In this document: positions 2,524 to 50,994 of the stretch, piece after piece
Position numbering within the stretch: position 1 is the first letter of the stretch
Layout of the letters: each line of letters begins with the position of its first letter
Assembly: GCA_045546315.1 (NCBI GenBank)
Contig: JAZQCN010000036.1
Coordinates: forward strand, 108,329-172,328
Reading direction: 5' to 3'
Source: Clostridia bacterium
Lineage (GTDB): Bacteria > Bacillota > Clostridia > UBA1381 > UMGS1253
DNA: 64,000 nt
Notes under the pieces: generated by a model
Told to the model about the DNA's origin: nothing
The model's input: the letters and a program-made list of their open reading frames with translations, nothing else
The model's database searches: none
Made by a program: the position numbers and the translations under genes

Positions 2524-2573
2524 AGGACCCACTCCTTCTGTTTATCCTATGCCGTCCGCGGCAAATTTATTAT

Positions 2574-8281: not shown

Positions 8282-9388
8282 ATGAACACGAATTCAAGCG
8301 AAGCTCCGCTTTTGCGCGTGTTGTTTTTAATCAATCACGCCGGCAGAGGCGGCTCCGAAAAATATGTATATAAGTTGATTCAAGCCTACGAGGGCAAGCG
8401 CGCCCGGTGCTATTTTGTTTTCAACGAAGCAGGGCTTTTGTCCGAGCAAATTGCAGAATTGGGCATTCCAAGCCATCGGCTTGAAATGCGCAGCTCCTTC
8501 GATTTAAAGGCGGCCAAGCGCCTGGCACAGCTTTGCCGCGAAAACAAAATTGATGTGATTCACGCACAGCATCCGCGCGAAAACTACATTGCTGTATTGT
8601 CGAGGCTTTTCTACAGCAAGCCAAAGGTTGTCTACACCTGTCATCTGCACTGGGAGGTACCTGCATGGCACAGACCGATTAACCGACTGATTACAAGCGG
8701 AAATCACAAAATCATAGCCGTATGTAACAGCGTGGCAGAGCGCTTAGTGCAAAACGGTGCGATGCGCAAAAAAATCCGGGTGATTTTTAACGGCATTACT
8801 CCGCCGGCGGCAGATAAGCCCTCCACCCTGCGCGAAGAGCTCGGCTTAGACGAAGATACCTTTGTGATTACAACGCTGGCGCGCTATGACATTCTAAAGC
8901 GTTATGACCTGCTTACGGAGGCAGTTGCCAAGCTCAAAAAGCTGACCAATCAAAAATTTGCCGTACTCTATGTCGGCGACGGAGAGCTCTATGACGATAT
9001 CACACAGCACATCCGGACCCTCGGCCTGGAAAAAGACATTTTCCAGCTCGGCTTTCGCACGGATACGGACAATATCCTGCAAGGCAGCGATTTGTTCGTC
9101 AACTGCTCTTCCAGCGAAGCGCTCAGCTTCGCCATTTTAGAGGCGCTCAGTCACGGGCTGCCCGCAATTGCAACAAAAATCGGCGGCAACCCGGACATTC
9201 TCTCGCCGCAGCACGATTGCGGCATCTTAGTAGATTTCGGAAACACGGACGCAATGGCAGAGGCATTCTGCCGTTTCATGGAGGACACCGCTCTCTATGC
9301 GCGCTGCAGTAAAAACGCGCTGCGCACGGTAAATGAGGTCTTTCATTTCAATAAAATATCAGACGAGACCTTTGAAACCTATTTATGA
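8282..9388 (+). CDS. glycosyltransferase family 4 protein
   Basis: 368 aa. GT4 C-terminal signature SSSEALSFAILEALSHGLPAIATKIGGNPDIL. The start codon abuts the murJ-like stop. Confidence 0.75.
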   Translation: MNTNSSEAPLLRVLFLINHAGRGGSEKYVYKLIQAYEGKRARCYFVFNEAGLLSEQIAELGIPSHRLEMRSSFDLKAAKRLAQLCRENKIDVIHAQHPRENYIAVLSRLFYSKPKVVYTCHLHWEVPAWHRPINRLITSGNHKIIAVCNSVAERLVQNGAMRKKIRVIFNGITPPAADKPSTLREELGLDEDTFVITTLARYDILKRYDLLTEAVAKLKKLTNQKFAVLYVGDGELYDDITQHIRTLGLEKDIFQLGFRTDTDNILQGSDLFVNCSSSEALSFAILEALSHGLPAIATKIGGNPDILSPQHDCGILVDFGNTDAMAEAFCRFMEDTALYARCSKNALRTVNEVFHFNKISDETFETYL

Positions 9389-9424
9389 TTTCAAAGGCAA
9401 ACCAAAAGAAAAGAGGTTTTCATT

Positions 9425-9916
9425 ATGCCAGAAAAGAAAAAGTTTAAGTTTAACATCATCGATGCGATTGTTCTCGTGGTTTTAATTGCAGCAATTTGCT
9501 TTGTCGGCTACAAGCTGTTTTTCGACCGCATGGGCGAAGGCTTTAATCAAAATGAGCAAGAGCTCAGCTACACCATCGAATTCTTCTGTGAAGAGTCGCC
9601 GACCTTCGCTGCAGAGCTCGTACAAATCGGCGATGCGGTTTCCGACGAATATAAGGATATTCCGCTCGGCACCGTAACAAGCGTTGAACTTGCGCCGTCT
9701 GTTTCCTATGCAACAAATGCAGCAGGCGAATATGTTGCATCCACGAAAGAAGGCTACAGCTCCGTAAAAATCACAACAGATTTAACCTTTGAAGGCGCAC
9801 CGTACCAGCACGGCTTCCAGATAGATGTCTCCAAGTACGGTGTCGGTCACACGATGACCTTCCGTGCAGGCAAAGCAAAGCTCTACGGCCGTATTTCCGC
9901 GATTGAACAAAAATAA
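9425..9916 (+). CDS. DUF4330-like single-pass membrane protein
   Basis: 163 aa. N-terminal anchor FKFNIIDAIVLVVLIAAICFVGYKLF. Embedded in the glycan operon. Confidence 0.45.
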   Translation: MPEKKKFKFNIIDAIVLVVLIAAICFVGYKLFFDRMGEGFNQNEQELSYTIEFFCEESPTFAAELVQIGDAVSDEYKDIPLGTVTSVELAPSVSYATNAAGEYVASTKEGYSSVKITTDLTFEGAPYQHGFQIDVSKYGVGHTMTFRAGKAKLYGRISAIEQK

Positions 9917-9930
9917 GGAGGCGATTGACT

Positions 9931-11460
9931 ATGCTTCGCCAAAGCATCACCTGGCAGCTTTTGCTGTACCTGAAAAGCATATGGATGCAATACGAAGACT
10001 CCGTTTTCTATCGCCGGATTATGGCACTCGCGGCACGCATTCGCTCCGTATTTTCGGAAAGCGCGCTGTATCACTGTGTTACGCAACCCTCCGCATTAGA
10101 GCAAAAGTATAAAACCTCCCTGTTTTATGCTGTGCTTAGTGCAATATACAGGGGCTTTGTCTTTTGCATCACTACCGTCCGCGATTGGATCGGCGCGCTG
10201 TCGGCGGGCAGTACGCTGCAGCGTATTTTACACAAAACGCGCATCGCCGGCGTATTTAAAATCGAATATCTGAGCGCAGGGTTCTTTGCGCTTATGCTGC
10301 TGACGCCGCATACGCTCTGGAATAACCTGTATGCGCTTGCAGGCGCAGTTTTTCTGCTGGTTGTGTACCTCTTACAGCTGAAAACCTCAGCGCAACCGAT
10401 GCGCAATGTGCGCGGTTTGCCGCTCTCACTGCTCATATTTGTGCTTGCCATCGCCTTCGGCGTAGTGATTACGCCGGTACCGGCAGACGGCGTGCGCATT
10501 GCAATGTTTTATATAACAGCGATTCTGTTTATGCTGATTTGCGCAGCAGGCATCCGCGATAAAAAGGCTCTTTATGCGTTTTTACATCTGCTGCTCGGCG
10601 GCTTGGGTATACTTTGTGTGTTCGGCATCGTGCAGCGCTTTATCGGCGTTGAGGTCAGCGAAGAATTTACCGACCTTGCCAACAATGTCGGTATGCCGGG
10701 CAGAATTTTCGCGACGCTTTCAAACCCGAACAACTATGCAGAGGTCATCGTGATGCTTACGCCGTTTGTCGGCGCAATGCTGCTCAAAACAAAATCCGGG
10801 CGCGCAAAGGTGCTCTGGTCGATTCTTTTGCTGTTGTGCGTCGTTGCATTAGCAATGACCTACTCCCGCTCCTGCTGGGTTTCCTTCGCTATTGCAGTCG
10901 TTGTATTCTTTGCACTCTACGATTGGCGACTTTTATTGCCGCTGTGCCTTGTGGCTGTGTTGTGTCTGCCGCTTTTGCCGGCATCGGTTATGAATCGCAT
11001 CTTAACCATCGGTTCCATGACGGACACCTCCAACGCCAGCCGCGTATTCATTTGGTACGGCGTTGCAGATATGCTGCGCGACCACGGCTTAACCGGCATC
11101 GGTCTCGGCTCGCAGGTGTTTACAAAAATGCACGAGCTTTATGCCCATCCGCACGCCCCCGTTGTTCAGCATTCGCATATGCTGTATTTAGAGCTGTTTA
11201 CGGAAATGGGCATCCTCGGCGGCTGCAGCTTTTTAGCCTTCCTTTTGACTACAATTAAGAAGGGACTTGCAAGCTTTAACCGCACAGACTATGAACTGCG
11301 CAGTCTCATTATTGCGGGCATCGCCTCGCTTGCCGGCATCTGCTTTGCCGGTGCCGCGGAGTACATTTGGTTCTACCCGCGTGTGATGTTCGTATTCTGG
11401 ATTGTCATGGGCATCTTGCTGTGTGCAATCCGTCTTTCCAAGCAGGAAAAGGGCAACTAA
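9931..11460 (+). CDS. O-antigen ligase/polymerase (Wzy_C) family membrane protein
   Basis: ORF 9925-11460. ATG 9931 sits 9 nt after AAGGAGG. Polytopic; Wzy_C-like region ..ALAMTYSRSCWVSFAIAVVVF... Confidence 0.65.
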   Translation: MLRQSITWQLLLYLKSIWMQYEDSVFYRRIMALAARIRSVFSESALYHCVTQPSALEQKYKTSLFYAVLSAIYRGFVFCITTVRDWIGALSAGSTLQRILHKTRIAGVFKIEYLSAGFFALMLLTPHTLWNNLYALAGAVFLLVVYLLQLKTSAQPMRNVRGLPLSLLIFVLAIAFGVVITPVPADGVRIAMFYITAILFMLICAAGIRDKKALYAFLHLLLGGLGILCVFGIVQRFIGVEVSEEFTDLANNVGMPGRIFATLSNPNNYAEVIVMLTPFVGAMLLKTKSGRAKVLWSILLLLCVVALAMTYSRSCWVSFAIAVVVFFALYDWRLLLPLCLVAVLCLPLLPASVMNRILTIGSMTDTSNASRVFIWYGVADMLRDHGLTGIGLGSQVFTKMHELYAHPHAPVVQHSHMLYLELFTEMGILGGCSFLAFLLTTIKKGLASFNRTDYELRSLIIAGIASLAGICFAGAAEYIWFYPRVMFVFWIVMGILLCAIRLSKQEKGN

Positions 11461-11481
11461 ACTTCCGGAGGCAATTTTTCT

Positions 11482-13710
11482 ATGAAAATACTACATTTAA
11501 TCAGTGGTGGCGACAGCGGCGGTGCCAAAACACATTTAAAAAACCTGGTATACAAACTCTCCGAATATGCAACAATTACGGTTGCTTGTCTTATGGAGGG
11601 TGAATTCTATACCGATTTTGTGCAAAACTATAAAGACACCGTGCTTTTCAAGCAAAAAAACCGTATGGATTTATCCGTCGTAAACGCGATTGTCAAAAAA
11701 CTGAAAAACGAGAAGTATGACCTTTTGCATGTACACGGTGCAAGAGCGAATTTTGTCTCCGTATTTATCAAGAAAAAGATTGACATCCCGATTGTCACCA
11801 CGATGCACAGTGACTATCTTTTAGACTTCGACGATTTTTTCAAAAAGCTTTTATTTACAAATATGAACCGTTTTGCACTGCGCAGAATCGACTATTTCAT
11901 CGCCGTATCCGATGCCTTTTCCGTGATGCTGCGCGAAAGAAACTTCCGCCCGAACAGCATCCAGACCGTCTATAACGGTATGAATTTTTCCGCCGTGCCG
12001 CAAACGGTAACCGACAAGGAAACCTTTGCAAAAAACCACGGCATAAACTACGACAAGGATTGCATTTATGTCGGTATCCTGGCGCGTTTGGATTTGGTTA
12101 AGGATGTAGCGACCTTCGTGCGCTGCGCTGCAGAAGCATGCAAGCAAAACAAACGCCTGCGCTTCTTAATCGGCGGCGACGGTGCCGAGCGCAAAAACTT
12201 AGAAGCACTCGCACGCCAGCTCGGCGTCGGCGAAGGGCTTAAGTTTTTAGGCTTTGTCTCCGATAACTACGGCTTTTTGAATTTTGTAGATATCAATACA
12301 TTGACCTCCCTGTGCGAAAGCTTTCCATACTCTATGCTGGAGGGCGCGGCAATGCACCTGCCGATGGTCGCATCGCGCGTCGGCGGTATTCCCGCACTCG
12401 TGCGCGACGGTGAAACCGGCTATTTATTCGATGTCGGCAATGCCAGGGAAATGGCAAAGCACATTCTCACCTTGGCAGACAATCCTGAAATGATGCATCA
12501 AATGGGTGAAAATATTTACACACTTGCAACCACACAGTTTTCCGACGATGCTTTTGCAAAAAGGCATATGGAAATGTATAAAAATATTTTAGAGGATTAT
12601 AATAGTCCAAAGCGCTACGATGTCGTGCTTTCCGGCTACTATGGCTTCCACAACAGCGGCGACGATGCGCTGCTGCTCGCCATACTGGACGGTCTTAAGA
12701 AAAAAAAGCCAAATTTGCGCGCAGCCGTTTTGTCCGCAGCACCGCGCAATACACGCCTGCAATACGGCGTAGATGCCATCAGCCGCGAGAATTTGTTTTC
12801 GCTTTGCCGGATACTGAAGGATTCCTCTATGCTCATCAGCGGCGGCGGCTCACTGATTCAGGACGAAACCAGTCCGCAGTCACTTTGGTACTATCTCGCC
12901 GTTATCCGTTTAGCCAAGCGCTTCGGACTCAAAATCATTCAGCTGGCTAACGGCTTCGGCCCGGTCAAATACAAATTCGATAAAAACCTGTGCCAAAAAA
13001 TTATCCCGCGCTGCGTGGATGCCATCACCCTGCGCGACAGCCACTCCGCAGTTGAATTGGAGCGTCTCGGCATCACCGGTATTCCATGTACCATTACGGC
13101 AGACCCCGCATTGACGCTTATCCCGGCAGACAATCGCCGGGCAAGGGCAATTTTAGAGGCAGCAGGCGTAGCCGAAGGGGAGCGCTTTATTGCCGTCTCC
13201 ATTCGCAGTACAAAAACTGCAAAGCCGGATTTCCGGGCACAGCTAGCAGCTGCGCTTGACCAGATTGCAAAAACGCACAAACGCAGCATCGTATTTTTGC
13301 CGATGCAATATCCGCGCGACTTAGAGATTTCGCGCGATATCGCCAAGCGTATGGGCGCAGCCAGCCATATCATCTCCACACCATCCGAGGTGCAGGAGAC
13401 AATGCAGATTTTAGCACACGCGGATTTGGTGATTGCAATGCGACTGCATACTTTGATTTATGCCGCCGCAATCGGCAAAGATGCCGTTGCAATCGACTAT
13501 GACCCAAAAATCAGAGGCTTTATGCACGATGCAGGTATGACGCATCGTATCACATTAACTGACTTTACGGCACAGGCATTAGTCGATGCAGCGAATGACT
13601 GCGTAACACACGCGCACACCATCGACAATGAAGCACTGCGCGTGCGTGCTGAAAAGAACGCCGATATTGCATTAGCACTCTTAGAGGAGGCAAACCATGC
13701 CAATTTATAA
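11482..13710 (+). CDS. csaB: fusion protein: N-terminal GT4 glycosyltransferase plus C-terminal polysaccharide pyruvyl transferase (CsaB-like)
   Basis: 742 aa. N-half: MKILHLISGGDSGGAKTHL ... ESFPYSMLEGAAMHLPMVASRVGGIPALV (GT4). C-half: YDVVLSGYYGFHNSGDDALLLAIL ... ISGGGSLIQDETS (CsaB/pyruvyl-transferase hallmark). Confidence 0.7.
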   Translation: MKILHLISGGDSGGAKTHLKNLVYKLSEYATITVACLMEGEFYTDFVQNYKDTVLFKQKNRMDLSVVNAIVKKLKNEKYDLLHVHGARANFVSVFIKKKIDIPIVTTMHSDYLLDFDDFFKKLLFTNMNRFALRRIDYFIAVSDAFSVMLRERNFRPNSIQTVYNGMNFSAVPQTVTDKETFAKNHGINYDKDCIYVGILARLDLVKDVATFVRCAAEACKQNKRLRFLIGGDGAERKNLEALARQLGVGEGLKFLGFVSDNYGFLNFVDINTLTSLCESFPYSMLEGAAMHLPMVASRVGGIPALVRDGETGYLFDVGNAREMAKHILTLADNPEMMHQMGENIYTLATTQFSDDAFAKRHMEMYKNILEDYNSPKRYDVVLSGYYGFHNSGDDALLLAILDGLKKKKPNLRAAVLSAAPRNTRLQYGVDAISRENLFSLCRILKDSSMLISGGGSLIQDETSPQSLWYYLAVIRLAKRFGLKIIQLANGFGPVKYKFDKNLCQKIIPRCVDAITLRDSHSAVELERLGITGIPCTITADPALTLIPADNRRARAILEAAGVAEGERFIAVSIRSTKTAKPDFRAQLAAALDQIAKTHKRSIVFLPMQYPRDLEISRDIAKRMGAASHIISTPSEVQETMQILAHADLVIAMRLHTLIYAAAIGKDAVAIDYDPKIRGFMHDAGMTHRITLTDFTAQALVDAANDCVTHAHTIDNEALRVRAEKNADIALALLEEANHANL

Positions 13711-26966: not shown

Positions 26967-27596
26967 ATGACAAAAAAAGAACGCCTGCTGCTTATAGCGC
27001 AGGACTTGGAAAATGCATATCCGGATGCGGTATGCTCGTTAGATAACGCGACTGACCCGTGGAAGCTGCTCGTTTCTGCAATTCTTGCAACGCAGTGCAC
27101 GGACAAGCGCGTGAATATGGTAACACCGGCACTGTTTGACCGCTTCCCGACGATTGCAGACTTTGCAAAAGCGACCGCGGAGGAGGTTATGCCCTACATC
27201 CGCTCGACCGGCTTTTTTAACCACAAGGCGGCAAACATCGTCGGCTCGGCGAAAAGGATTATGGATAGTTTCGGCGGCGCAGTGCCGCGCACGATGGAAG
27301 AGCTCACCACGCTTCCCGGTGTCGGCAGAAAGATTGCAAATCTTTTAATCGGCGACTGCTTCGGCGGCGATGCGATTGTCGTCGACACGCACTGCAAGCG
27401 TTTAACCTACCGCATGGGGCTTACAAAGCAGACCGATCCGACCAAAATCGAAATGGAGCTTTGGAAAATCATGCCGCCCGGTATCGGCAGCGACTTTTGC
27501 CACCGCATTGTCTACCTCGGGCGCGAATACTGTGTGCGCAATCCAAAATGCGATATTTGTCCGGTAAATGCGCATTGTAAAAAGGTATTGAAATAA
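26967..27596 (+). CDS. nth: endonuclease III (DNA-(apurinic/apyrimidinic site) lyase)
   Basis: ORF 26955-27596; start is ambiguous (26961 or 26967). HhH-GPD motif LPGVGRKIANLL and a C-terminal four-Cys cluster CVRNPKCDICPVNAHC. Confidence 0.9.
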   Translation: MTKKERLLLIAQDLENAYPDAVCSLDNATDPWKLLVSAILATQCTDKRVNMVTPALFDRFPTIADFAKATAEEVMPYIRSTGFFNHKAANIVGSAKRIMDSFGGAVPRTMEELTTLPGVGRKIANLLIGDCFGGDAIVVDTHCKRLTYRMGLTKQTDPTKIEMELWKIMPPGIGSDFCHRIVYLGREYCVRNPKCDICPVNAHCKKVLK

Positions 27597-27635
27597 CTAT
27601 AAAACACAAAAAAGGCTCCCCTGTGTAAGGGGAGC
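27572..27635 (+). repeat. left direct repeat of the island (covers the last 7 nth codons, stop and terminator-type hairpin)
   Basis: GCATTGTAAAAAGGTATTGAAATAA ... AAAAAAGGCTCCCCTGTGTAAGGGGAGC. It matches 30456-30508 with a few mismatches and an 11-nt insertion. Confidence 0.8.
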
Positions 27636-27636
27636 T

Positions 27637-27718
27637 GTCATTTTGTAAAAATGACTGAGGGGGTTGTTACAACCCTCCCGTCGCGCTTCGCGCGCCACCC
27701 TCCCTTACACAGGGAGGG
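27637..27718. repeat. cluster of four consecutive short hairpins at the island's left junction
   Basis: GTCATTTtgtaaAAATGAC; GAGGGggTTGttacCAACCCTC-like; CGCGCttcGCGCG; CCCTCCCttacacaGGGAGGG. The loop of the last is the complement of the CTGTGTA loop in the flanking repeat hairpin. Confidence 0.6.
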
Positions 27719-27723
27719 CTTTT

Positions 27724-28035
27724 TTAGTTTTTCACCATATTTTTCAAAAGCTTTTCAACCAACTCTAATTGCTCATCATCCAGCTTCTTTAACAAATCTG
27801 TAATTCTGCTCAGCTTCTCCGGATTTTTATTCTCCAAGTCAAAAAACGCACTCGGTGTTATGCCGAGATAGTCACAGATATAAAGCAATACCGGCAAGGA
27901 CGGAAATCCTTGTCCAGTTTCAATATGGTTAATATAACCTGCATTTTGTCCAATAGACAAACTCATTTCGCGAGCAGAAACATTTTTTTGCTCACGCAAC
28001 TGATATAGTCGCATTCCAAAATCTATCTCGTACAT
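27724..28035 (-). CDS. XRE-family helix-turn-helix transcriptional regulator (possible controller protein)
   Basis: ORF 27724-28053. ATG at 28033-28035 is preferred (GAAGGA RBS). HTH LREQKNVSAREMSLSIGQNAGYINHIETGQ. Divergent from the MTase gene. Confidence 0.8.
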   Translation of the reverse strand: MYEIDFGMRLYQLREQKNVSAREMSLSIGQNAGYINHIETGQGFPSLPVLLYICDYLGITPSAFFDLENKNPEKLSRITDLLKKLDDEQLELVEKLLKNMVKN

Positions 28036-28107
28036 TTCCTTCACCACCCACATTATATTTTATGCCATACACTGACGCAAGATATGCTTTTTAATCAATT
28101 ATTTTTG

Positions 28108-28136
28108 TTGTAATATGCTTTTTTATATGATATAAT
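28108..28136 (+). promoter_or_regulatory. promoter candidate for the MTase-nuclease operon, overlapped by an 11-bp direct repeat
   Basis: TTGTAA (28108-28113), 17 nt, TGaTATAAT (28128-28136). ATATGCTTTTT occurs at 28082-28092 and again at 28113-28123, inside the spacer. Confidence 0.45.
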
Positions 28137-28179
28137 TTTTAAAATACAACTTTTTAAAGCATAAGGATGGTAATTCGCC

Positions 28180-29295
28180 ATGGCAAATGAAAATCTATCA
28201 AAAGCTAAGAATGCAAAAAATGACGAGTTTTATACACAGTACGAGGATATACAAAGAGAAATCAATGCGTATTTAGAATACAATCCCGATGTTTTTAAAG
28301 GCAAAACAATCCTGCTTCCCTGCGACGACCCCGAATGGAGTAACTTTACAAGGTTTTTTGCACAAAACTTTGCAAGCTTTGGCTTGAAAAAACTGATTAG
28401 TACAAGCTATGCGACAGAAAGCAAGGGAAATAACGGCTACTATCAGCTTTCCTTATTCGAAGAGGAGTCCCCGCAATTCGACGAAAACAAAACAAAGACA
28501 CACGGAAAAATATTTACGCTTACGCGCGACAGCAATCATTCCGGCGCAATTGATGTTGACGATTTGGAATGGCAGTATCTCGAAGGTGACGGCGACTTCC
28601 GCAGCGACGAGGTGAAGGCTCTAAGGGATGAAGCGGATATTATTGTGACAAATCCACCGTTTTCTTTGTTCAGAGAATTCCTTGCTTGGATCGTTGAAGG
28701 AAGCAAAAACTTTATAATCATTGGAAACCAAAACGCTATAACATACAAAGAGGTTTTTCCTCTGATAAAAGAAAACAAAATATGGCTTGGCAAGGGATTT
28801 AAAGGTGGTGCAACACATTTTATAAATAAATATTATACCGATTATGCTACCGCGAGTGACCATCGTGAAGGAATGATTCGTGTATCAGGGGTAGTGTGGT
28901 TTACAAACCTCGACCATGGTCGCAGACATCAACCTTTAAGCCTGATGACAATGGAAGATAACATAAAGTTCAGCAAGCATAAAGAAATCCGAAACATTGG
29001 TTACAGAAGTTATGATAATTATAATGCAATTGAAGTTCCATTCACCGATTCTATTCCCAGTGATTACGATGGTGTTATGGGCGTACCAATTACTTTTTTG
29101 GATAAGTACTGTCCTGAACAATTTGAAATCATATGGCAGGCAAGTGGCAACGCCTATGCAAATGCTCCTAAAGAAGTTCTAAAAATGCTCAATTTTGATC
29201 CAACTGTAAAATATGGCGGTGGACTTGGGGCGGCTGTTGTTGACGGGAAAGCAGTATACTCTCGAATACTCATAAGAAAGAAGGTAGTCAAATGA
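28180..29295 (+). CDS. N6-adenine-type DNA methyltransferase, EcoRI-methylase-like family
   Basis: 371 aa. N-terminal [12 protein letters not shown]. Catalytic motif [27 protein letters not shown]. Confidence 0.75.
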
Positions 29296-30455
29296 TTACA
29301 ACCCTGAAAACCGACATCACCGTAGCCGACATTTGCAAAGGCTTTGTCTATAATGAATACGAGGGCAAGGGCTTATTTGGGCTGTCCGGCAAGCTTGTAA
29401 TTCAGCCGGAATATCAAAGAAACTACATCTATGCCGACGGCAAGCGTGATGTTGCCGTGATAGACTCTATTATCAAGGGCTATCCGCTCGGGCTTATCTA
29501 TTTTACAAAGGTTGCAGAAGATAAATATGAAGTGCTCGACGGGCAGCAGCGCATCACGAGCTTCGGCCGCTTTGTGACGAACAAATTTGCCATAACCGAT
29601 ACAAACGGCATTCCGCGCTATTTTTCCGGACTTGCCACAGATATACAGCAAAAGATTATGGAAACACCGCTTACGATTTACATCTGTGAAGGCACGGAGA
29701 GCGAAATCAAGGCATGGTTTAAAACCATCAATATTGCAGGCGTCCCCTTAAACGAGCAGGAGCTTTCTAACGCAATTCATTCCGGTCCGTTTGTAACCAA
29801 GGCGAAAGAAGAATTTTCAAACAGTCAAAACGCCAACATTCAGAAATGGAGCGCTTATATCTCCGGCAGTGTATTACGGCAGGATTATCTGCGCACAGCG
29901 CTTGAATGGGTAAGCAAGGGCAACATCGACGATTATATGAGCCGTCACCGCTACGACGAGAATATAAACGAATTAAAATCCTATTTCACAAGCGTGATAG
30001 ACTGGGTTTCAAGCGTATTTACCGATGTAGAAAGTGAAATGCGCGGTCTGCCTTGGGGCGAGCTTTACGAAAAGTATCACAAAAATTCCTACGATCCCGA
30101 TGTCGTGGCTGCGCATCTACGCTCACTTTATGCAGATTTTTATGTAAAAGACAAAAGAGGCATTTACGAATTCATTCTCGGCGGCTGTACAGATCACAAG
30201 CTGTTAAACATCCGCATCTTCGACGAGCCGACGAAAAAGACGGTTTATGCCATACAGACCGAAAAAGCGAAGGGCGAATGCATATCAAACTGTCCGCTCT
30301 GCGCCGTAGGCTTTGACAGCAACAAAACGCGCATTTGGAAAATAAGCGAAATGGATGCCGACCATGTTACCGCCTGGAGCAGAGGCGGCAGCACAGACAT
30401 GAAAAATTGTCAGATGCTTTGCAAGACACACAATAGAGCCAAGGGCAATAAATGA
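29292..30455 (+). CDS. DUF262 (ParB-like NTPase/nuclease superfamily) - HNH endonuclease fusion protein
   Basis: 387 aa. DUF262 signatures [11 protein letters not shown] and [10 protein letters not shown]-terminal zinc-HNH CPLC...[32 protein letters not shown]. The start overlaps the MTase stop (ATGA). Confidence 0.75.
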
Positions 30456-30508
30456 GCATTGTAAAAAAGTATTGAAATGAAAAAAGGCTCCCCTATGTAA
30501 GGGGAGCC
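30456..30508 (+). repeat. right direct repeat of the island (displaced nth 3' end plus terminator hairpin)
   Basis: GCATTGTAAAAAAGTATTGAAATGA AAAAAGGCTCCCCTATGTAAGGGGAGCC. Reading frame g-CAT TGT AAA AAA GTA TTG AAA TGA gives HCKKVLK*. Confidence 0.8.
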
Positions 30509-35768: not shown

Positions 35769-36167
35769 TTAATAGCGTTTGCGATAGAACAAATATGCGC
35801 CAGATATTAAAAGCGTTTGAAAACAAGCGGTACAGGCCATAAGCATCTGCCAATCTTCCTTTTTCATAAGCGCAAACACAATAGATAACATATACTCTAC
35901 AGCTATCGAAATCCAAAGTGCCGTCGCATAGCTTTTTTGAGAAAGCCATATGTTACGCTCATCTTCATTTTCACACTGATACGCTTTAAGCTTTTCCGGA
36001 TGCTTGCAAAACTTGTAAATGCGTACACTTTGCAAAATAGCCACGCCCAACGCACCTGCACCGTAGCCGTCTAAAGGAAAATCGGTTACAACATCAGCAA
36101 CCAACAAACCCAATCCCAAAATCCATCCAATAACCGTACCCCAAATCAATCTTTTTGGTATTTTCAT
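35769..36167 (-). CDS. small integral membrane protein, translationally coupled to an HTH regulator
   Basis: 132 aa with 3-4 TM segments. 4-nt overlap (ATGA) with the upstream regulator gene. Confidence 0.5.
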
Positions 36168-36367
36168 TGTTCGCCCTCCTCAAAAATAAATACATCCTCA
36201 ATATGACACTCAAAAGCCTTTGCAATCTTGTATGCCAACAGTATAGACGGATTGTATCGCCCGTTTTCCAAAGAAATAATTGTCTGCCTCGAAACCTGCA
36301 AAGCATCCGCCAACATTGCCTGCGTCATATTTCGCTGCTTCCGATACGCTTCAATTCTGTTTTTCAT
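36164..36367 (-). CDS. short XRE/Cro-type HTH transcriptional regulator
   Basis: ORF 36164-36418. ATG at 36365-36367 is preferred: [41 protein letters not shown]. Confidence 0.75.
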
Positions 36368-36463
36368 CCACTCACCTTCCTTAAACGTAAAGTCAACTTT
36401 ACATTTAATATAGCACATCCCTTTTCAAATGTCAAGCATGCTTTACATTTTTATAAAGCATAC

Positions 36464-36631
36464 GGGCGATTCGTGAATCGCCCCTACGAGCACAAATTGC
36501 AAGCAGTAGCGTAGGGCGATGATTTATCATTGCCGTAAAATTATGCCCCATTGACGGCGCGGCACACAGGCACGCGCCCTACGATGCTGATTAAAATGTA
36601 TATTTGTAGGGAACGACCTATGTGTCGTTCC
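36464..36631. repeat. cluster of four GTAGGG-anchored hairpin repeats in alternating orientation
   Basis: 36464-36487 GGGCGATTCgtgAATCGCCCCTAC. 36511-36534 GTAGGGCGATGATttATCATTGCC. 36556-36582 GGCGCGgcacacaggcaCGCGCCCTAC. 36606-36631 GTAGGGAACGACctatgtGTCGTTCC. Confidence 0.7.
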
Positions 36632-36674
36632 GCCAATTCTACACAAACAAAAAGAACGGTCAAGCATTGACCGT

Positions 36675-36935
36675 TCACTGTTCAAGTAGTTTTTGAAAAT
36701 CCTCAAGCAAAGCTTGCGGCGATACATCAAATATCTCGCAAAAGCACGCAAATTCATAATCCGTTACAATGCGCAGATTCTTTTCTATGCGACTAATCAT
36801 TTGCTGGTCCATATGCACACCCAACACCTGCATTTTTGCCGCTAATACCTCCTGCGACATGCCTGCTGCGCAACGCAAACGCTTAACGGAAGCTCCGACA
36901 ACATTCTTATGCTCGTTAAAGTCAATCTTCTTCAT
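36675..36935 (-). CDS. XRE-family HTH transcriptional regulator
   Basis: ORF 36675-37073. ATG at 36933-36935 is preferred: MKKIDFNEHKNVVGASVKRLRCAAGMSQEVLAAKMQV... Confidence 0.7.
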   Translation of the reverse strand: MKKIDFNEHKNVVGASVKRLRCAAGMSQEVLAAKMQVLGVHMDQQMISRIEKNLRIVTDYEFACFCEIFDVSPQALLEDFQKLLEQ

Positions 36936-37054
36936 CTTACCAAACCCTTTTACGTCAATCAAATGTAATTTCAGTTTGACTTTAACATATATTTTGTCGT
37001 ATAATACGTTATATAAACGTAAAATAGATATTTTTAGGGAGAAGGTATACACAA

Positions 37055-37210
37055 ATGAAAACTGCAAAAGCAAAACTTCTGCTTTGGTACTACAGAAGAA
37101 AAATGAACAGGCTGATTGCCAAAGGTATGCCTTTGACCGACGAAAAAGTAATTCGCGCTAGTCAAAAATGCGACAAATATATAAATCTATGTTTGGATTA
37201 CAAGCGATAA
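37055..37210 (+). CDS. Spo0E-like small protein (aspartyl-phosphate phosphatase family), below the ORF-track length cutoff
   Basis: Manual translation, 51 aa: MKTAKAKLLLWYYRRKMNRLIAKGMPLTDEKVIRASQKCDKYINLCLDYKR. It has the helix - SQxxDxxI pattern of Spo0E-family proteins. GAAGG lies upstream and a terminator downstream. Confidence 0.45.
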   Translation: MKTAKAKLLLWYYRRKMNRLIAKGMPLTDEKVIRASQKCDKYINLCLDYKR

Positions 37211-37237
37211 GTGGCGCTGCGCCAATTCCGCACAAAA

Positions 37238-37262
37238 CAAAAAAGGGCTTTCGCCCTTTTTT
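37238..37262. terminator. bidirectional terminator
   Basis: AAAAAAGGGCtttcGCCCTTTTTT. Confidence 0.6.
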
Positions 37263-37917
37263 AATATTTTGCCAATTCGTCCTTTAACGCCTCTTGATAC
37301 ACCTGCGTGTACATCTCGTAGCCAAATGCGTTATAATGCACGTTGTCAGAAAAAATGTCCTTGCTCTGCATCAGCGGATGATTGAGCACGTCTATGTAAT
37401 GACAATCCGGTGTTTTCTGCACAAATTCTTTAAGAATCGACTCTAATTTCGCTCTTACTTCTAAAAGCCCCGGCTCCTTCGACTCATCCTTTCTCGGATG
37501 CGGTCCGGGCAAATAAATATGAATACCCGGAAAATCGTGCCTTGCATAAGCAATCACGCGCTGCCCAAGTGTAAAGCACTCCTCCGGCGTATAGCCGAGA
37601 GACGCGCCGTTTCCGAAGCATTCATACACAAGCACCTTCGGCGCAAGCGGACGAATCATACGCGGATAGTAGTAAAGCTGATGCTCCGCGCAGCTCGAGC
37701 CGAAGCCGCGGTTGATGACGCACCTCTTACCGCTCTTACCCAAAAGGCACTCTGCCATCGGCTTTATGCCATATTTCGGGCCCCATCTTGTGAATATAGA
37801 CGGACCGTAAAATACAATCTGCCCCGTTACGATTTCTTCTTGTTCATATTCGCGGATTTTAGGCTCCATATACTCATCATACTGCGCAATATAATCGAAA
37901 CCAACCTTAATTTCCAT
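37261..37917 (-). CDS. SGNH/GDSL-like hydrolase (putative carbohydrate esterase)
   Basis: ORF 37261-37983. ATG at 37915-37917 (MEIKVGF..) follows AAAGGAG. Blocks: FYGPSIF (Ser), GFGSS, FGNGAS, DNVHYN (DxxH). Confidence 0.5.
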   Translation of the reverse strand: MEIKVGFDYIAQYDEYMEPKIREYEQEEIVTGQIVFYGPSIFTRWGPKYGIKPMAECLLGKSGKRCVINRGFGSSCAEHQLYYYPRMIRPLAPKVLVYECFGNGASLGYTPEECFTLGQRVIAYARHDFPGIHIYLPGPHPRKDESKEPGLLEVRAKLESILKEFVQKTPDCHYIDVLNHPLMQSKDIFSDNVHYNAFGYEMYTQVYQEALKDELAKY

Positions 37918-37933
37918 GCTTATCACTCCTTTA

Positions 37934-38204
37934 GGCGGAACCAACGAATCCGAACTTGTTTTTTGCTTTCTGTTTTCCGCCATTCCTTCGTTAAAATCCT
38001 CGCAAATACACGAGTATTTGCTGCGTTTTTGCCTTGTACTGACAAAAAACAGTTTGCAAAAAATTCATTGGAACCTGAAATTGTTTAAAATCGAGATTTT
38101 TCGAGGCGGCAGGGCGAAGGAATACGCCCGTATTTCAAGACCGACAACGCTGAAAAAGCCGATTTTCAGCAATTTCAGGCAGGTTCGGATTTGTCGGTTC
38201 CGCC
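37934..38204. repeat. about 270-bp intergenic module bounded by a 22-bp imperfect inverted repeat
   Basis: GGCGGAACCAACGAATCCGAAC (37934-37955) versus GTTCGGATTTGTCGGTTCCGCC (38183-38204), 20/22 complementary. Nested IRs lie inside (CCTGAAATTG/CAATTTCAGG; ATTCCTTCG/CGAAGGAAT). Confidence 0.6.
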
Positions 38205-43977: not shown

Positions 43978-44067
43978 AGTATCCTCTCCTTTTATGTTTA
44001 TTAAATTTGTATATTCTGATTGAATGCATTAAAACGGAAATAATGCCTTTTCTCGCGACGTAGCTCT

Positions 44068-45639
44068 TCAGTTCAGCTGAATATCAATAGGCAATTTGCC
44101 TTTTGGTTCGAATTCACCGGTTAAAACCTCAAGAGGGTATTTCATATCCACAGGTCCTAAGCTGTAAATGACTCTCGGGAAATGCGGCGCTTTTTCTATG
44201 GAATACGGGTTTCCGAAATGGACAATCGTTGAAAGCTTAGACTGCATTGCTGCCATAAGATTGGTTATCTTTTCGGTCAGATTTTCACTACCTGCGTATG
44301 CACCGACTTCGGCAAAGGTTATAAAGTGAACTTCATCCACCTTTGTGCTTTCAAAGCAAACATTTTCAATCTGCTTTTTGTTCGGAAACACATTGATTGC
44401 CACACAGTTAGCATCAGGAAACTTTTCTTTGATTTCATCAATGATTTTATTCGCTGCAGCCCAGGAGCCTCCGGTTTTTTCCGTCCATTCTCTTACTTCG
44501 TAATTTGAATCGTCGTATAGATTTTCTGCCAAAACAACAAACAAGCGTTTCTTGCCGGCTTCGAGCTTTGCGGAAACATTTTCGTCTTTTATAAGACAAA
44601 TGCCTTCACGCCAAACCCTTTCGATACACTGTTTCTGATACTCCGAAATTTCAGTTGCGGTTGCAGGCTTCATGGTGGAGTTCTGTGCCCGAATCACTCT
44701 TGCTACGGCTTCGTTTAATCGCTCTTCGGTAAAAGCACCGTTTTTATATGAATTCAGAAGATATTCATATGAGGTTTTAAAGGGAACACGATAATTCGGC
44801 AGAACCATATCTATTCCTGCAGCGATTGCGATTCCGTAGCACTTATCTTCGCTGTGCTTCTGCAAAATCCCCATCATTGCAAAGGAATCGGTTAATATGA
44901 GTCCGTCAAAGCCCTGATTTCTTAATATGGACAGAAGCTTTTTAGACATACTCGCGGGATAAACAGGATCAATTTTAGGATAAACAACATGCTTTGTCAT
45001 AATGCCGGGAAGATTTGCTTCTTTCATTGCATTTGCATACGGAACCATATCAACATCAAGGATATCTTTTTCCGTAAGCATCGATAATCCTTCTTCCATA
45101 TGGGTATCCACTGTTATATCTCTTCCGCCGGGAAAATGCTTTGCAGTTGCAAACATTCCGTTATCCAGGTACCCTTTCAGCACCGCAGTTGTAATTTTAG
45201 CAACATAATTTTCATCACTTCCGCAGGTTCTGATAACGCGGCTGCGCGCATTGCCCATAACCATATCAACATTGGGTGCCCAGACTGTATTATAGCCTAA
45301 TTTTTTAGCTTCAATCGCTGTTATGCAACCATGCTGATATGCAATCTCTTCATCGTTTAAAGATGCCAGCGCCATCATGGAAGGAATCTTGTATTTACTC
45401 ATAGGAAATCCGGTTTCCATATCGCTGCATATAAGCACCGGATATCCTGCATGCGCATTTATTCTTTTAATTTCTTCAGCATTTCCGTTGACACATGGAA
45501 CCTGAACGGCACCTATGCTTTTTTTCTCAAGCATTTCATAAACAAAATTACGGTCCTCTTCATCGAGGTAACCTCTTACACAGAGAAGCTGCCCTATCTT
45601 TTGTTCGACTGTAAGTTCACGAATATTAAGCTCTTTCAT
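44068..45639 (-). CDS. glycoside hydrolase family 3 protein (cytoplasmic)
   Basis: ORF 44068-45693. ATG at 45637-45639 is preferred (MKELNIRELTVEQKIGQLL). KHFPGGRD motif. No signal peptide. Confidence 0.7.
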   Translation of the reverse strand: MKELNIRELTVEQKIGQLLCVRGYLDEEDRNFVYEMLEKKSIGAVQVPCVNGNAEEIKRINAHAGYPVLICSDMETGFPMSKYKIPSMMALASLNDEEIAYQHGCITAIEAKKLGYNTVWAPNVDMVMGNARSRVIRTCGSDENYVAKITTAVLKGYLDNGMFATAKHFPGGRDITVDTHMEEGLSMLTEKDILDVDMVPYANAMKEANLPGIMTKHVVYPKIDPVYPASMSKKLLSILRNQGFDGLILTDSFAMMGILQKHSEDKCYGIAIAAGIDMVLPNYRVPFKTSYEYLLNSYKNGAFTEERLNEAVARVIRAQNSTMKPATATEISEYQKQCIERVWREGICLIKDENVSAKLEAGKKRLFVVLAENLYDDSNYEVREWTEKTGGSWAAANKIIDEIKEKFPDANCVAINVFPNKKQIENVCFESTKVDEVHFITFAEVGAYAGSENLTEKITNLMAAMQSKLSTIVHFGNPYSIEKAPHFPRVIYSLGPVDMKYPLEVLTGEFEPKGKLPIDIQLN

Positions 45640-45698
45640 TTTGATGTACCTCTTTAATATTCTTAAAAAGTTCCAGCTATTTTTACTCTGCACTACCC

Positions 45699-45727
45699 TT
45701 GACAGATATATTTGCTCATGCTATACT
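45699..45727 (+). promoter_or_regulatory. promoter candidate for the AraC regulator 45808-46638
   Basis: TTGACA (45699-45704), 17 nt, TGcTATACT (45719-45727). Confidence 0.5.
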
Positions 45728-45732
45728 TTCAT

Positions 45733-45777
45733 TATACAGCAATATTTACCCAGCTTCAATGGTTATATTGCTGTATA
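45733..45777. promoter_or_regulatory. 13-bp perfect inverted repeat (operator or 5'-UTR hairpin candidate)
   Basis: TATACAGCAATAT (45733-45745), 19 nt, ATATTGCTGTATA (45765-45777). A related half-site ATTATACAGAAGCAATTTT lies at 50113-50131. Confidence 0.5.
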
Positions 45778-45807
45778 CATTGAAAATATTGCGCAGAGGT
45801 GAGAAAG

Positions 45808-46638
45808 ATGCTACCGCAAAAACCATTTGTAGACTTGAACTTTTCACTCAAAAACGGATACAAGGTATATACAAGTGAAACAAGCACCGCGCAAAATACA
45901 CATACGCATCATCACGATTCTTACGAAATCTATATGCTTTTAAACAGCCGTGTCGATTTTTTTGCCGACGGTGCCATGTATCCGCTCAACCCCAAAGAGC
46001 TGATTGCCGTACGCGGCGCATCGCCGCACGGGCGGCTCACCGTACACAACGGCAGTGCAGAATATATGGTCATTTTGCTCAACGAAGACTTTTTTGTGCA
46101 AAACGGCTGTACGCAGTATGAGGAAATCTTTTATCCGCACGCGCGCGGCGACCGCAAAATCAGCGCCGCCACCTGTGAAAACAGCGGACTTTATGACGTA
46201 TATACGCGCTTGAAAAAATACACCAACAATTTTACGGACACCGATAATGTCATTACAAGGACGCTTTTGATTGAGTTTTTGCATGTCTTAAATACAGAAA
46301 CGCACTTTTCCAAAACCTACATCTCCAATCCGCAGGTAGAAAAGATTTTAACCTATATCGACGAAAATTTAAGCAAAAAGCTTACCTTAGACGAGCTTGC
46401 GGAGCACGCATTTTTGTCGAAATACCATATGTGCCGCCTGTTTAAAAAATATGTCGGCTGTACAATTAACCAGTACATCACCGCCAAGCGCATTGAGCGT
46501 ACAAGCGCGCTTGCACAGGAAAAGAAAAGCTTGACCGCCGCCTGCGCCGAAGCCGGCTTTTCGGATTATTCCGCTTTTTACAAAGCCTTTAAGCGCGAGC
46601 ACGATACGCAGCCGAAAATCCTTTTGAAAAAGAAATAA
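45808..46638 (+). CDS. AraC-family transcriptional regulator (cupin sensor plus HTH)
   Basis: ORF 45799-46638. ATG 45808 follows AGAGGTGA. C-terminal HTH LSKYHMCRLFKKYVGCTINQYI. Confidence 0.8.
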   Translation: MLPQKPFVDLNFSLKNGYKVYTSETSTAQNTHTHHHDSYEIYMLLNSRVDFFADGAMYPLNPKELIAVRGASPHGRLTVHNGSAEYMVILLNEDFFVQNGCTQYEEIFYPHARGDRKISAATCENSGLYDVYTRLKKYTNNFTDTDNVITRTLLIEFLHVLNTETHFSKTYISNPQVEKILTYIDENLSKKLTLDELAEHAFLSKYHMCRLFKKYVGCTINQYITAKRIERTSALAQEKKSLTAACAEAGFSDYSAFYKAFKREHDTQPKILLKKK

Positions 46639-48816: not shown

Positions 48817-50076
48817 TTAATAAATCGAAACGCTTTCGTCGATACAAACCTCATCCAAGCAATATTTACCGCGCACAATCGCTTCTCTGCAAAGCCATTT
48901 GCCCTTCGTAAAGTCCGGCACCTCTACCGGTGCACCACCCTTGGCAATGGAAGCCTCGGAAAGCGGTGCAATCGCCATCCATGTCGCCGTATCATACGCA
49001 TCAATCGGTGTGTTTGTACCCTGCTTCACCGCTTCGATAAATGCACGGCACACAAGCCAGTCCATACCACCATGGCCGGCTCTTTCGCCCAGTGCAACAT
49101 ACTCTTTGTGGAGTGGATGGTCGTATGTCTTGTACATTTCTTCTTCGTTGTTTTCAACGCCCTCTTCCATACCTTCGAAGTAGAGAACCTTTCTTTCTTC
49201 GGTATACATGCCTTTGGAGCCTCTCACCGTAAAGTTTCTGCTGTAATATGGTCTTGGCAATGTGGTATCCAGGCATAGATGAATCGTCTCACCACCGGCG
49301 CAGGTAATCACGGTTGTGATAATATCGCCCTGCTTGTAGTCCATATTGGCATACGGACTGTCTGCACCCAAAATGGTTTTTGCCGCTTCCTTTAAACCTG
49401 CACTACGCGATGCAAACGACGAAAGTGTCAGCATCTTATTGCCGCGGTTAATATTTAATACCTTCGAAATCGGACCAAGTTCGTGGGTCGGATACTGCTC
49501 ACAATTTCTTTTAATATACGACTCAAGTCTGTAGTGTTTATATTCGTCACCTACATCCTTAAACAGCTCGCACTCCGGTAAGTTATGGTGATAACCGCCG
49601 GCACAGTGCACCACCTCGCCGAACAGGCCTTCCTTCACGAGCTTTAATGCCATCATCTCTCTGCGTCCATAGCAACAGTTTTCCAGCATCATCAGCGGCA
49701 CCCCTGTTTTTTCATAGGTATCTACCAAGTCGTAGCACTCCTGCAAATCGAATGCACACCCTACTTCAATGCCGGTATATTTGCCCGCCTTCATCGACTC
49801 AATCGCGATGGCGCTTCTGCCTTCCCAACACGTCATAACAAACACCGCATCAATATCCGGATTTTTCAAAATATCGTGATAATCCGTCGTCAGAATCGGC
49901 TCCGGCAACCCCTTTTCGACAATCATAACCTTCGCTTTTTCCAGATGCGGTGCATAACCGTCGCAAAGCGCCGTGATTTCCACATCCTTCATCTCGCTGA
50001 GACATTTGTCCAAAACAGAATAGCCTCTTCTGCCCAAACCAATATAACCAATCTTAATTTTTTCTTTCATTTTCAT
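48817..50076 (-). CDS. Gfo/Idh/MocA-family oxidoreductase (GH109-like architecture)
   Basis: 419 aa. N-terminal IKIGYIGLGRRGYSVL. Long C-terminal alpha/beta domain. Confidence 0.7.
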   Translation of the reverse strand: MKMKEKIKIGYIGLGRRGYSVLDKCLSEMKDVEITALCDGYAPHLEKAKVMIVEKGLPEPILTTDYHDILKNPDIDAVFVMTCWEGRSAIAIESMKAGKYTGIEVGCAFDLQECYDLVDTYEKTGVPLMMLENCCYGRREMMALKLVKEGLFGEVVHCAGGYHHNLPECELFKDVGDEYKHYRLESYIKRNCEQYPTHELGPISKVLNINRGNKMLTLSSFASRSAGLKEAAKTILGADSPYANMDYKQGDIITTVITCAGGETIHLCLDTTLPRPYYSRNFTVRGSKGMYTEERKVLYFEGMEEGVENNEEEMYKTYDHPLHKEYVALGERAGHGGMDWLVCRAFIEAVKQGTNTPIDAYDTATWMAIAPLSEASIAKGGAPVEVPDFTKGKWLCREAIVRGKYCLDEVCIDESVSIY

Positions 50077-50191
50077 TTCTCCTTGACGTAAGCTTTAACA
50101 TATGTTATCTTGATTATACAGAAGCAATTTTGATACTTCAATGTTTAAATAGATATATAAATTATCGTTTCAGACAGTATGGTGATTGAAG

Positions 50192-50992: not shown

Positions 50993-50994
50993 AA

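Follow-up and report, generated by a model that had tools for sequence, protein, structure and literature searches.

A DUF262-HNH nuclease held constant beside the exchangeable cassettes of an EcoRI-family methyltransferase: a candidate restriction-modification system with type III/type I-like logic

Introduction

The locus described here lies in a stretch of 64,000 nucleotides (the window) from a Clostridia bacterium (GenBank assembly GCA_045546315.1, contig JAZQCN010000036.1, positions 108,329 to 172,328 of the forward strand). It contains a gene for an EcoRI-family DNA methyltransferase (MTase), a gene for a nuclease joining a DUF262 domain to an HNH domain, and an XRE-family regulator gene. 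An original prediction, made from the letters of the DNA, had seen in it a candidate restriction-modification (R-M) or defence module. The family concerned is abundant: its homologues number in the thousands, come from many phyla and are also met on plasmids and in phages. Databases file it as ordinary type II. The question raised by this locus is which of the two proteins reads the DNA: does the nuclease recognize a sequence of its own, or would it take its targets from the MTase?

Results

A constant nuclease beside exchangeable methyltransferase cassettes

The two genes of the pair, and the two segments of the MTase on which the argument turns, are the following.

28180..29295, + strand: EcoRI-family N6-adenine DNA MTase, 371 amino acids (Pfam PF13651 EcoRI_methylase, full length, 1.9e-128)
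29292..30455, + strand: DUF262 (ParB/Srx-fold)-HNH nuclease, 387 amino acids (Pfam GmrSD_N/DUF262 PF03235, 8.6e-20, and HNH PF01844, 3.9e-7)
28786..28893, + strand: MTase variable cassette VR1, putative target-recognition element, residues 203-238 (block identity to the window 0.24; 8 types)
29137..29256, + strand: MTase variable cassette VR2, second putative target-recognition element, residues 320-359 (block identity to the window 0.19; 31 types)

Conservation was analyzed over 69 complete systems and the window. In pairwise comparison the nucleases were on average 0.75 identical and the MTases 0.60, and in 99.8% of locus pairs the nuclease was the better conserved of the two. Outside VR1 and VR2 the MTases were about 0.68 identical. 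The two cassettes occur as discrete types, mutually unalignable and differing in length, which were delimited by single-linkage clustering at 40% identity, with some subtypes merged. The 69 systems carried 55 combinations of VR1 and VR2, every common VR1 type being found with 5-13 VR2 types; judged from these sequences, VR1 and VR2 evidently recombine independently. The VR2 type of the window was also present in loci from Oscillospiraceae, Ruminococcus, Bacteroidales and Chitinophagales (L002, L022, L047, L049, L076), and is thus distributed across phyla.

Nearly identical nucleases were found beside different cassettes in the following locus pairs.

L008 and L009: nuclease 99.2% identical, 3 differences; VR1 differs
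L037 and L043: nuclease 99.2% identical, 3 differences; VR1 and VR2 differ
L001 and L003: nuclease 98.7% identical, 5 differences; VR1 and VR2 differ
L005 and L008: nuclease 98.2% identical, 7 differences; VR2 differs

The nuclease residues that differ within these pairs are dispersed, and most of the exchanges are conservative. At the DNA level, L037 and L043 were 99-100% identical in both chromosomal flanks, in the 5' third of the MTase gene and over the whole nuclease gene, against 20-50% from VR1 to VR2. The variable parts of the nuclease showed no co-variation with the MTase cassettes (partial correlation 0.08). Cassettes also differ within a single replicon or genome. Plasmid 2 of Variovorax sp. 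SRS16 (L084) carries tandem MTase genes (767-1795 and 2474-3490) followed by a single nuclease gene (3480-4604), with a tyrosine recombinase gene adjacent; the two MTases are 55% identical, their cores being conserved and their VR1 and VR2 different. Two contigs of one Oscillospiraceae RGIG2118 metagenome-assembled genome (MAG; L002 and L003) encode nucleases 96.9% identical, and their VR2 cassettes differ. A constant nuclease combined with cassette exchange would let one nuclease gene spread across phyla while specificity diversifies locally by recombination.

Putative target recognition by the cassettes

Discrete, length-variable and recombining segments, set in conserved sequence and followed by a conserved nuclease gene, are the pattern of the target-recognition domains of type I HsdS and type III Mod proteins, and the behaviour of the cassettes suggests that VR1 and VR2 set the DNA sequence specificity of the MTase. 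M.EcoRI itself, encoded on the Escherichia coli EcoRI plasmid pMB5823_5, carries VR1 type 5 (62-72% identity, versus 12-38% to other VR1 types), and its core is about 49-58% identical to the MTases of the family. VR1 lies just before C223, W225 and H235 of M.EcoRI, residues implicated in cofactor or DNA interaction and in specificity. The EcoRI-like M.MpnI/M.MgeI methylates the short asymmetric sequence CTAT, as determined by cloning and single-molecule real-time sequencing (PMC3536716), versus GAATTC for M.EcoRI.

Pairing, coupling and distribution

The protein collection contains more than 8000 close relatives of the nuclease, and 185,579 species genomes yielded more than 566 loci; the counts given here for genome loci refer to the best 80 of these. 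Their nucleases are 72-89% identical and come from Clostridia, Bacteroidota, Spirochaetota, Chloroflexota, phyla of the Candidate Phyla Radiation (CPR) and Proteobacteria. An EcoRI-family MTase gene lies 5' of the nuclease gene and on the same strand in 74 of the 80 loci, which is every informative one (74/74): five others have at most 210 nt of upstream DNA, and in the last, L060, the contig ends 3.3 kb upstream. L060 was considered as a true MTase-less locus and rejected, since its contig ends there and since it carries, at 1944-3260, the same inserted gene that parts the MTase from the nuclease in L059 and L075.

The same order, MTase then nuclease, was found in 23 of 24 informative viral loci and in all five plasmid homologues (Macrococcoides, Variovorax, Aeromonas, Thiomicrorhabdus, Lactiplantibacillus), whose nucleases are 37-43% identical. 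The pair also occurs on Enterococcus faecium megaplasmids and, as a moron, in Flavobacterium phage laban6-1. In the window, the MTase stop and the nuclease start share the sequence ATGA (29292..29295, + strand; ...AGAAGGTAGTCAAATGA...), with AGAAGG as ribosome-binding site. This overlap, already pointed out in the original prediction, recurs over the same 4 nt in 37 of the 74 related loci; the two genes overlap in 47/74 and are at most 20 nt apart in 61/74. The prediction of a co-conserved, translationally coupled R-M-like pair is thus sustained by genome, viral and plasmid loci alike, and the sequences indicate that the MTase-nuclease pair is a real, horizontally mobile module. The phage origin envisaged at the same time was not supported, phages not being the main habitat of the pair: 25 viral loci were found in 2.9 million viral contigs, versus the more than 566 of the species genomes.

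In several loci (L050, L059, L064, L075, L077), mostly from CPR/Patescibacteria, the MTase gene is separated from the nuclease gene by 1-3 kb that hold other genes of the same orientation. Judged by their N-terminal sequences, these genes encode a recurrent protein of about 420 amino acids (MKKVKVSIQDENTLVL...), a 607-amino-acid AAA/OLD-like ATPase, and RhuM-like, Bro-N-like, Fic-like, nucleotidyltransferase and T5orf172/DUF3800-like proteins. By analogy, they resemble defence genes carried as passengers inside type I R-M operons.

Two unusual arrangements were also met. At L104 the nuclease gene (8001-9176) is directly followed by a gene for a 1076-amino-acid KAP-family P-loop NTPase (9204-12434), which may be an alternative partner. 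At L089 (6001-8067; proteins P0180/P0406), an EcoRI-methylase-like domain, a 23-amino-acid linker and a DUF262-HNH part form one in-frame fusion of 688 amino acids. The host of this fusion reads genetic code 4 (seven TGA codons for tryptophan, GC content 33%), and two assemblies agree at 99% identity. The possibility that P0180 is a read-through artefact was rejected, as it is in frame under code 4, its junction holds no stop and it is present in two assemblies. The fusion is compatible with both modules acting as one unit, and we regard it as a lead rather than as evidence.

Domains and conserved residues of the nuclease

The following features were recognized within the nuclease.

29292..29726, + strand: DUF262/ParB-fold nucleoside triphosphate (NTP)-binding domain, residues 1-145 (profile match and conserved motifs)
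29403-29420, + strand: QR motif, residues 38-43, in the DUF262 domain
29538-29552, + strand: DGQQR motif, residues 83-87, in the DUF262 domain
30291..30452, + strand: zinc-braced canonical HNH domain, residues 334-387 (C334/C337, D357-H358, N372, C373/C377, H380-N381)

Among 51 representatives of 33-63% identity, Q42, R43, D83, G84 and R87 of the DUF262 domain were invariant, as were C334 and H358 of the HNH domain, while D357, N372, C377 and N381 were conserved in at least 90%. This conservation points to purifying selection on both halves of the nuclease across the family.

Sequence profiles matched the DUF262 part to BrxU (7P9K, E=0.003) and the C-terminus to 4H9D (2.3e-6) and also to the HNH domains of Cas9 and EcoKMcrA; Pfam gave no DUF1524 match at E<=0.1. 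The AlphaFold2 model of the nuclease, built on a shallow alignment (78-87% identity), was poor (predicted local distance difference test, pLDDT, 58.5), the DUF262 part alone being usable. With this weak model, the top Foldseek matches were all of the ParB/Srx fold (ParB-CDP, BrxU, PadC, Noc, sulfiredoxin), with a probability of 0.97 for ParB-CDP and BrxU but an E-value of about 0.01. In PADLOC, the nuclease matched REase_II PDLC03418, 'Type II restriction enzyme', at 2.3e-90 (residues 9-387 on model positions 8-372 of 372). Weak PADLOC likeness over the DUF262 part was found to NsnA (4.2e-30) and PD-T4-2_A (7.6e-15), both over residues ~32-240, and to HEC-05/HEC-06. In the characterized DUF262 nucleases BrxU, GmrSD and SspE, the nuclease is under the control of this domain, which binds or hydrolyses NTPs (PMC12707154). 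ParB-HNH fusions are entered as novel and uncharacterized in a survey of the ParB-CTPase fold from 2025 (PMC12704722).

Identity of the methyltransferase

The MTase covers the whole PF13651 profile (positions 1-345 of 345) with 429 bits, for a cut-off of 26.4, and PADLOC assigned it over its full length to MTase_II PDLC03297 (1.2e-90). It is 100% identical to protein P0271 of the protein collection. Its catalytic motif was read in the sequence and is kept in the alignment, where T157, N158, P159 and F161 are invariant among 53 MTase homologues.

28648..28662, + strand: catalytic motif IV TNPPF, residues 157-161

Profile searches thus bore out all the domain calls of the original prediction (EcoRI_methylase PF13651, DUF262 PF03235, HNH PF01844 and XRE). 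The AlphaFold2 model of the MTase had a mean pLDDT of 71.5, below 50 in VR1, and Foldseek of this model against the PDB gave no match (best E 0.56). Single-sequence searches of the PDB sequences returned nothing for the MTase or for the nuclease.

Other relatives of the MTase were encountered away from the pair. In 21 Lactococcus plasmid records (hits H131-H143, e.g., NC_008505.1 28371-28559), an unannotated remnant of about 67 amino acids is 67% identical to residues 26-92 of the MTase, and these remnants appear to be decayed copies of EcoRI-family MTase genes. EcoRI-family MTases about 38-40% identical are present in Mycobacterium phages Marchy, Hami1 and Norz (H155-H157) and in Helicobacter phage Pt11509_1 (H151), where no DUF262-HNH partner was detected; in Pt11509_1 the MTase adjoins an annotated EcoRI-type endonuclease. 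The nuclease partners of the MTase family would therefore be of two kinds or more, and some of its members may be orphans.

The island and its XRE gene

In the window, the pair belongs to a 2.9-kb island which holds the XRE, MTase and nuclease genes and nothing else, between nth (endonuclease III) and a convergent phosphotransferase system (PTS) gene. The three open reading frames announced by the original prediction were found at their places, and its statement that three genes fill the island is made exact by the direct repeats of the nth 3' end, which mark its limits. The features of the island outside the pair are listed below.

27565..27635, + strand: left direct repeat, left boundary of the island (final ~30 nt of the nth coding sequence and terminator hairpin GGCTCCCCTGTGTAAGGGGAGC)
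27698..27718, strand not assigned: third copy of the hairpin, degenerate and inverted, just 3' of the XRE stop (inverted-repeat search and terminator-like scan)
27724..28053, - strand: XRE-family helix-turn-helix (HTH) regulator, 109 amino acids as the longest open reading frame (Pfam HTH_19/HTH_3, 6.5e-10)
28081..28142, + strand: candidate operator/promoter region, three direct 14-nt boxes over the best sigma-70-like promoter match
30449..30507, + strand: right direct repeat, right boundary of the island (copy of the nth 3' end and hairpin, the hairpin being a terminator)

The repeat search placed the right copy 2884 nt from the left one, beginning at the nuclease stop codon, and the two copies are 93% alike over 30 nt and 82% over 45 nt. 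The hairpin is confined to two sites in the 64 kb (the left repeat and 30486-30507), for 0 expected by chance; with two copies only, it was rejected as a dispersed repeat of the repetitive extragenic palindrome type. The GC content is 0.38-0.43 inside the island and about 0.49 around it. Neither an integrase nor phage genes were found among its genes, from the window open reading frames and profile searches. The direct repeats, the hairpin at both ends and the low GC content together indicate a three-gene unit of 2.9 kb inserted at the nth terminator. The degenerate, inverted hairpin may terminate the XRE gene, or be a trace left when the island was assembled or inserted. Elsewhere in the window, the stretches 36001-38000, 44001-46000 and 50001-51000 are also low in GC (0.40-0.44 versus about 0.49), and might be other acquired segments.

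The XRE protein matched HTH_VI (4.4e-9) and Control_protein (1.6e-6) in PADLOC. An in-frame ATG at 28035 stands 8 nt 3' of a Shine-Dalgarno-like element GGTGGTG, and the N-terminus read from it agrees with the homologue of L002; 28035 is therefore the probable start on sequence grounds, 28053 being also workable. The repeat search found the 14-nt boxes (GATATGCTTTTTAA-like) at 28081, 28112 and 28129, and the best match of the promoter scan was a TG-extended TTGTAA-17-TATAAT (28108-28136, 10/12). Boxes overlapping a promoter could plausibly be an operator. Among about 62 related loci with room for it, an HTH gene was found 5' of the pair in only three (L002, L033 and, weakly, L055). The XRE gene is thus accessory and island-specific, outside the conserved core, and the proposal that the system works under XRE control does not extend to the system as conserved elsewhere. 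L002 has the only clear XRE homologue (43%), in the same divergent position as in the window.

Discussion

Proposed mechanism

The observed gene content, domain identities, near-obligate pairing, coupling geometry, cassette shuffling and lack of nuclease co-variation bear on one question, that of where specificity resides. As the nuclease is near-invariant beside shuffled MTase cassettes, the locus is best read as an R-M system whose logic resembles that of type III and type I, in which specificity would lie in the MTase and the nuclease would be a generic, NTP-switched effector; we hold this reading with belief and doubt in about equal measure. The MTase alone would read the sequence, through VR1 and VR2, and the nuclease would be a conserved generic effector without a matching sequence specificity of its own. 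Most likely, the MTase would direct or license the nuclease at unmethylated target sites, as happens in type III (Mod/Res) and type I systems, and the DUF262 domain would be a nucleotide-dependent switch gating HNH cleavage. We infer, then, that targeting of the nuclease requires the MTase and that an NTP switch operates. More tentatively, and with rather more doubt than confidence, we propose an undescribed R-M class, in which a ParB/Srx-fold NTPase-HNH protein would replace Res/HsdR and take its targets from a monomeric, two-cassette EcoRI-family MTase, with dozens of specificities built around a universal nuclease.

Several points weigh against the type III/type I-like reading. The loci come mostly from MAGs, so that the shuffling might be an assembly artefact, although the identical flanks and the isolate plasmids argue otherwise. 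The role of VR1 and VR2 in specificity is suggested by the behaviour of the cassettes and by the M.EcoRI literature, and M.EcoRI is an autonomous monomer within a classical type II system. Residues ~146-330 of the nuclease have no assigned function and might read DNA, and a few substitutions can retarget the enzymes of some nuclease families. L104, in a Mu-like prophage (rve transposase, S24 repressor), is the sole true MTase-less copy of the nuclease. In the L089 fusion the MTase motifs are degenerate (TNPPF to TFPSF, DEFYTQ to NNLFAS) and the available 9 kb contain no other MTase, so that this protein may also be read as a nuclease no longer needing methylation. The solo copy and the fusion show that the nuclease can be maintained where no active MTase adjoins it. 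Lastly, both proteins have full-length PADLOC models, REase_II and MTase_II, and that of the nuclease family bears the name 'Type II restriction enzyme'.

Alternative explanations

The PADLOC label agrees with a classical type II system, in which the DUF262-HNH protein would be an autonomous, sequence-specific endonuclease and all the partner MTases would methylate its cut site. The two-gene layout is typical of such systems, and the MTase family includes the archetype M.EcoRI, partner of R.EcoRI. However, nucleases 98-99% identical stand beside unrelated MTase cassettes, which fits a fixed cut site poorly unless the cassettes leave specificity unaffected, and the nuclease does not co-vary with them. 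An NTPase-like domain with conserved NTP-binding motifs would also be unexpected in an orthodox enzyme. The nuclease is moreover the better conserved partner in 99.8% of pairs, the reverse of the usual asymmetry: one report calls type II endonucleases 'a paradigm of ORFans', which usually diverge fast (PMC2441816). We therefore consider an orthodox type II system unlikely, in line with the original view that the locus is not a textbook one. Were it nevertheless of this kind, it would be another R-M island, in which only the conservation of the nuclease would be left to explain.

A generic nuclease beside variable MTases would also be accounted for by self-sensing of the SspE kind, in which the DUF262 domain would read N6-methyladenine (m6A) on resident DNA regardless of sequence, and would restrain the HNH domain or redirect it to unmodified invader DNA, with no MTase-nuclease complex. 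The DUF262 domain of SspE does sense the phosphorothioate made by its partner module (PMC12707154; PMC12065111). Yet, if any m6A protected the host, there would be little selection for extensive diversification of the cassettes, and the C-terminal nuclease domain differs from the DUF1524 of SspE; this explanation strikes us as improbable.

We find it quite improbable that the protein is a type IV, GmrSD-like nuclease directed against foreign modified DNA and merely linked to an independent MTase, for example one protecting a mobile element. The precedents are real, as the characterized GmrSD, BrxU and Eco94GmrSD are all modification-dependent and stand-alone (PMC12707154), and the solo nuclease at L104, the fusion with its apparently dead MTase motifs and no MTase nearby, and the weak PADLOC likeness to PD-T4-2_A, HEC-05/06 and NsnA over the DUF262 part would all agree with them. 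Against it stand the co-occurrence of about 99% with one MTase family across phyla, down to 37% nuclease identity, the overlapping or tightly coupled genes, the lack of a DUF1524 domain, and the retention of the pair even where other genes are inserted between its members.

A phage-derived selfish or anti-restriction cassette, whose MTase would shield phage DNA and whose nuclease would serve host DNA degradation, homing or packaging, could be invoked for laban6-1 and the 25 viral contigs and from the frequency of HNH nucleases in phages (PHROG matches), but it is largely refuted and very improbable, as viral copies are a small minority, plasmids and chromosomes commonly carry the pair, and the window island lies without phage genes between nth and a PTS gene.

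Significance and catalogue status

The module is an R-M module whose sequences are already catalogued and whose mechanism is undescribed in the searchable literature. The original prediction did not recognize the combination as a described system; PADLOC nevertheless holds the two full-length models, and standard defence finders would thus label the island RM type II. Distant homologues of the nuclease reach 404-456 bits on PDLC03418, the best scores being in a clade of proteins of 360-378 amino acids; as they outscore the nuclease of the window, the seeds of this model would come from another branch of the same family. Full-text literature searches gave no published description of the MTase/DUF262-HNH pair. 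The BREX-embedded DUF262-HNH genes (PMC10117892) were examined and set aside as a different family, as were the GmrSD-like systems of Vibrio and Enterococcus, which belong to different families.

If the type III/type I-like reading is true, this would be a fourth way of organizing R-M beside the type I, II and III logics, and for the first time a ParB-fold NTPase would have a defined role in an R-M enzyme, that of its 'motor or switch' subunit. The module would also offer a natural two-cassette system to reprogram m6A specificity, of practical interest for MTase and nuclease design, and would mean that PADLOC, DefenseFinder and REBASE-type pipelines mis-type thousands of systems.

Comparison with known systems

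Like orthodox type II systems, the locus has an MTase gene next to a separate endonuclease gene, both of which match curated type II profiles; it departs from them in that the nuclease does not co-vary with the MTase cassettes, a comparative proxy which assumes that the cassettes set specificity. The EcoRI system (type IIP) has an MTase of the same family (PF13651, full length, NPPF motif) with VR1 type 5 in common. R.EcoRI, however, is a PD-(D/E)XK enzyme, unrelated to the DUF262 and HNH nuclease found here; the gene order is R then M in pMB5823_5, whereas here M precedes R and overlaps it, and the MTases of the present family undergo combinatorial cassette exchange that the nuclease does not track. 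R-M operons controlled by C-proteins have a small HTH controller gene and operator boxes conserved alongside the R-M genes; the window has an XRE gene with a Control_protein match (1.6e-6) and three 14-nt boxes over the promoter, a candidate counterpart, and an HTH gene lies 5' of the pair in only three of the ~62 related loci.

The original prediction had compared the nuclease with the GmrSD/BrxU/SspE architecture, and this holds at the level of the fold. GmrSD, BrxU and Eco94GmrSD share the N-terminal DUF262 of ParB/Srx fold with its QR and DGQQR motifs, BrxU being the closest solved DUF262 protein, and their nuclease activity is stimulated by NTPs (PMC12707154). The comparison fails for the C-terminal domain, which is DUF1524 in those enzymes and a canonical, zinc-braced PF01844 HNH here. 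BrxU has about 590 amino acids versus 387, and GmrSD-type enzymes are stand-alone and modification-dependent, whereas the present nuclease is, with few exceptions, coupled to an MTase that looks cognate. The accompanying statement that such enzymes act without a cognate modification enzyme was wrong for SspE, which works with SspABCD (PMC12707154). SspABCD-SspE/Dnd indeed offers the likeness of a DUF262 nuclease working with a self-marking DNA-modification module; it differs by its phosphorothioate and its DUF1524, in place of which the present system has predicted m6A made by a single MTase, an HNH domain and translational coupling. With Menshen NsnA, PD-T4-2_A, HEC-05 and HEC-06 the likeness is at the level of the DUF262 domain, through partial matches only, and these systems have other partners (an ABC ATPase and PIN effectors in Menshen) and no EcoRI-family MTase.

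The type III Mod/Res systems (e.g., EcoP15I) resemble the present one by a mod-like gene followed by an overlapping, co-transcribed nuclease gene, the order M then R being found in all loci. Type III systems and type I HsdS shuffling also share with it variable recognition segments combined with a conserved nuclease subunit, allele replacement at a fixed chromosomal locus, and passenger defence-type genes inside the operon. The differences lie in the components: there is here no superfamily 2 helicase/ATPase and no PD-(D/E)XK domain, but a ParB-fold NTPase and an HNH domain instead, and the MTase belongs to PF13651, not to Mod PF01555 or HsdM PF02384, and has no HsdS beside it. With a GmrSD_N and HNH nuclease and a PF13651 MTase, the pair would therefore at most work like a type III system, of which it is not a member.

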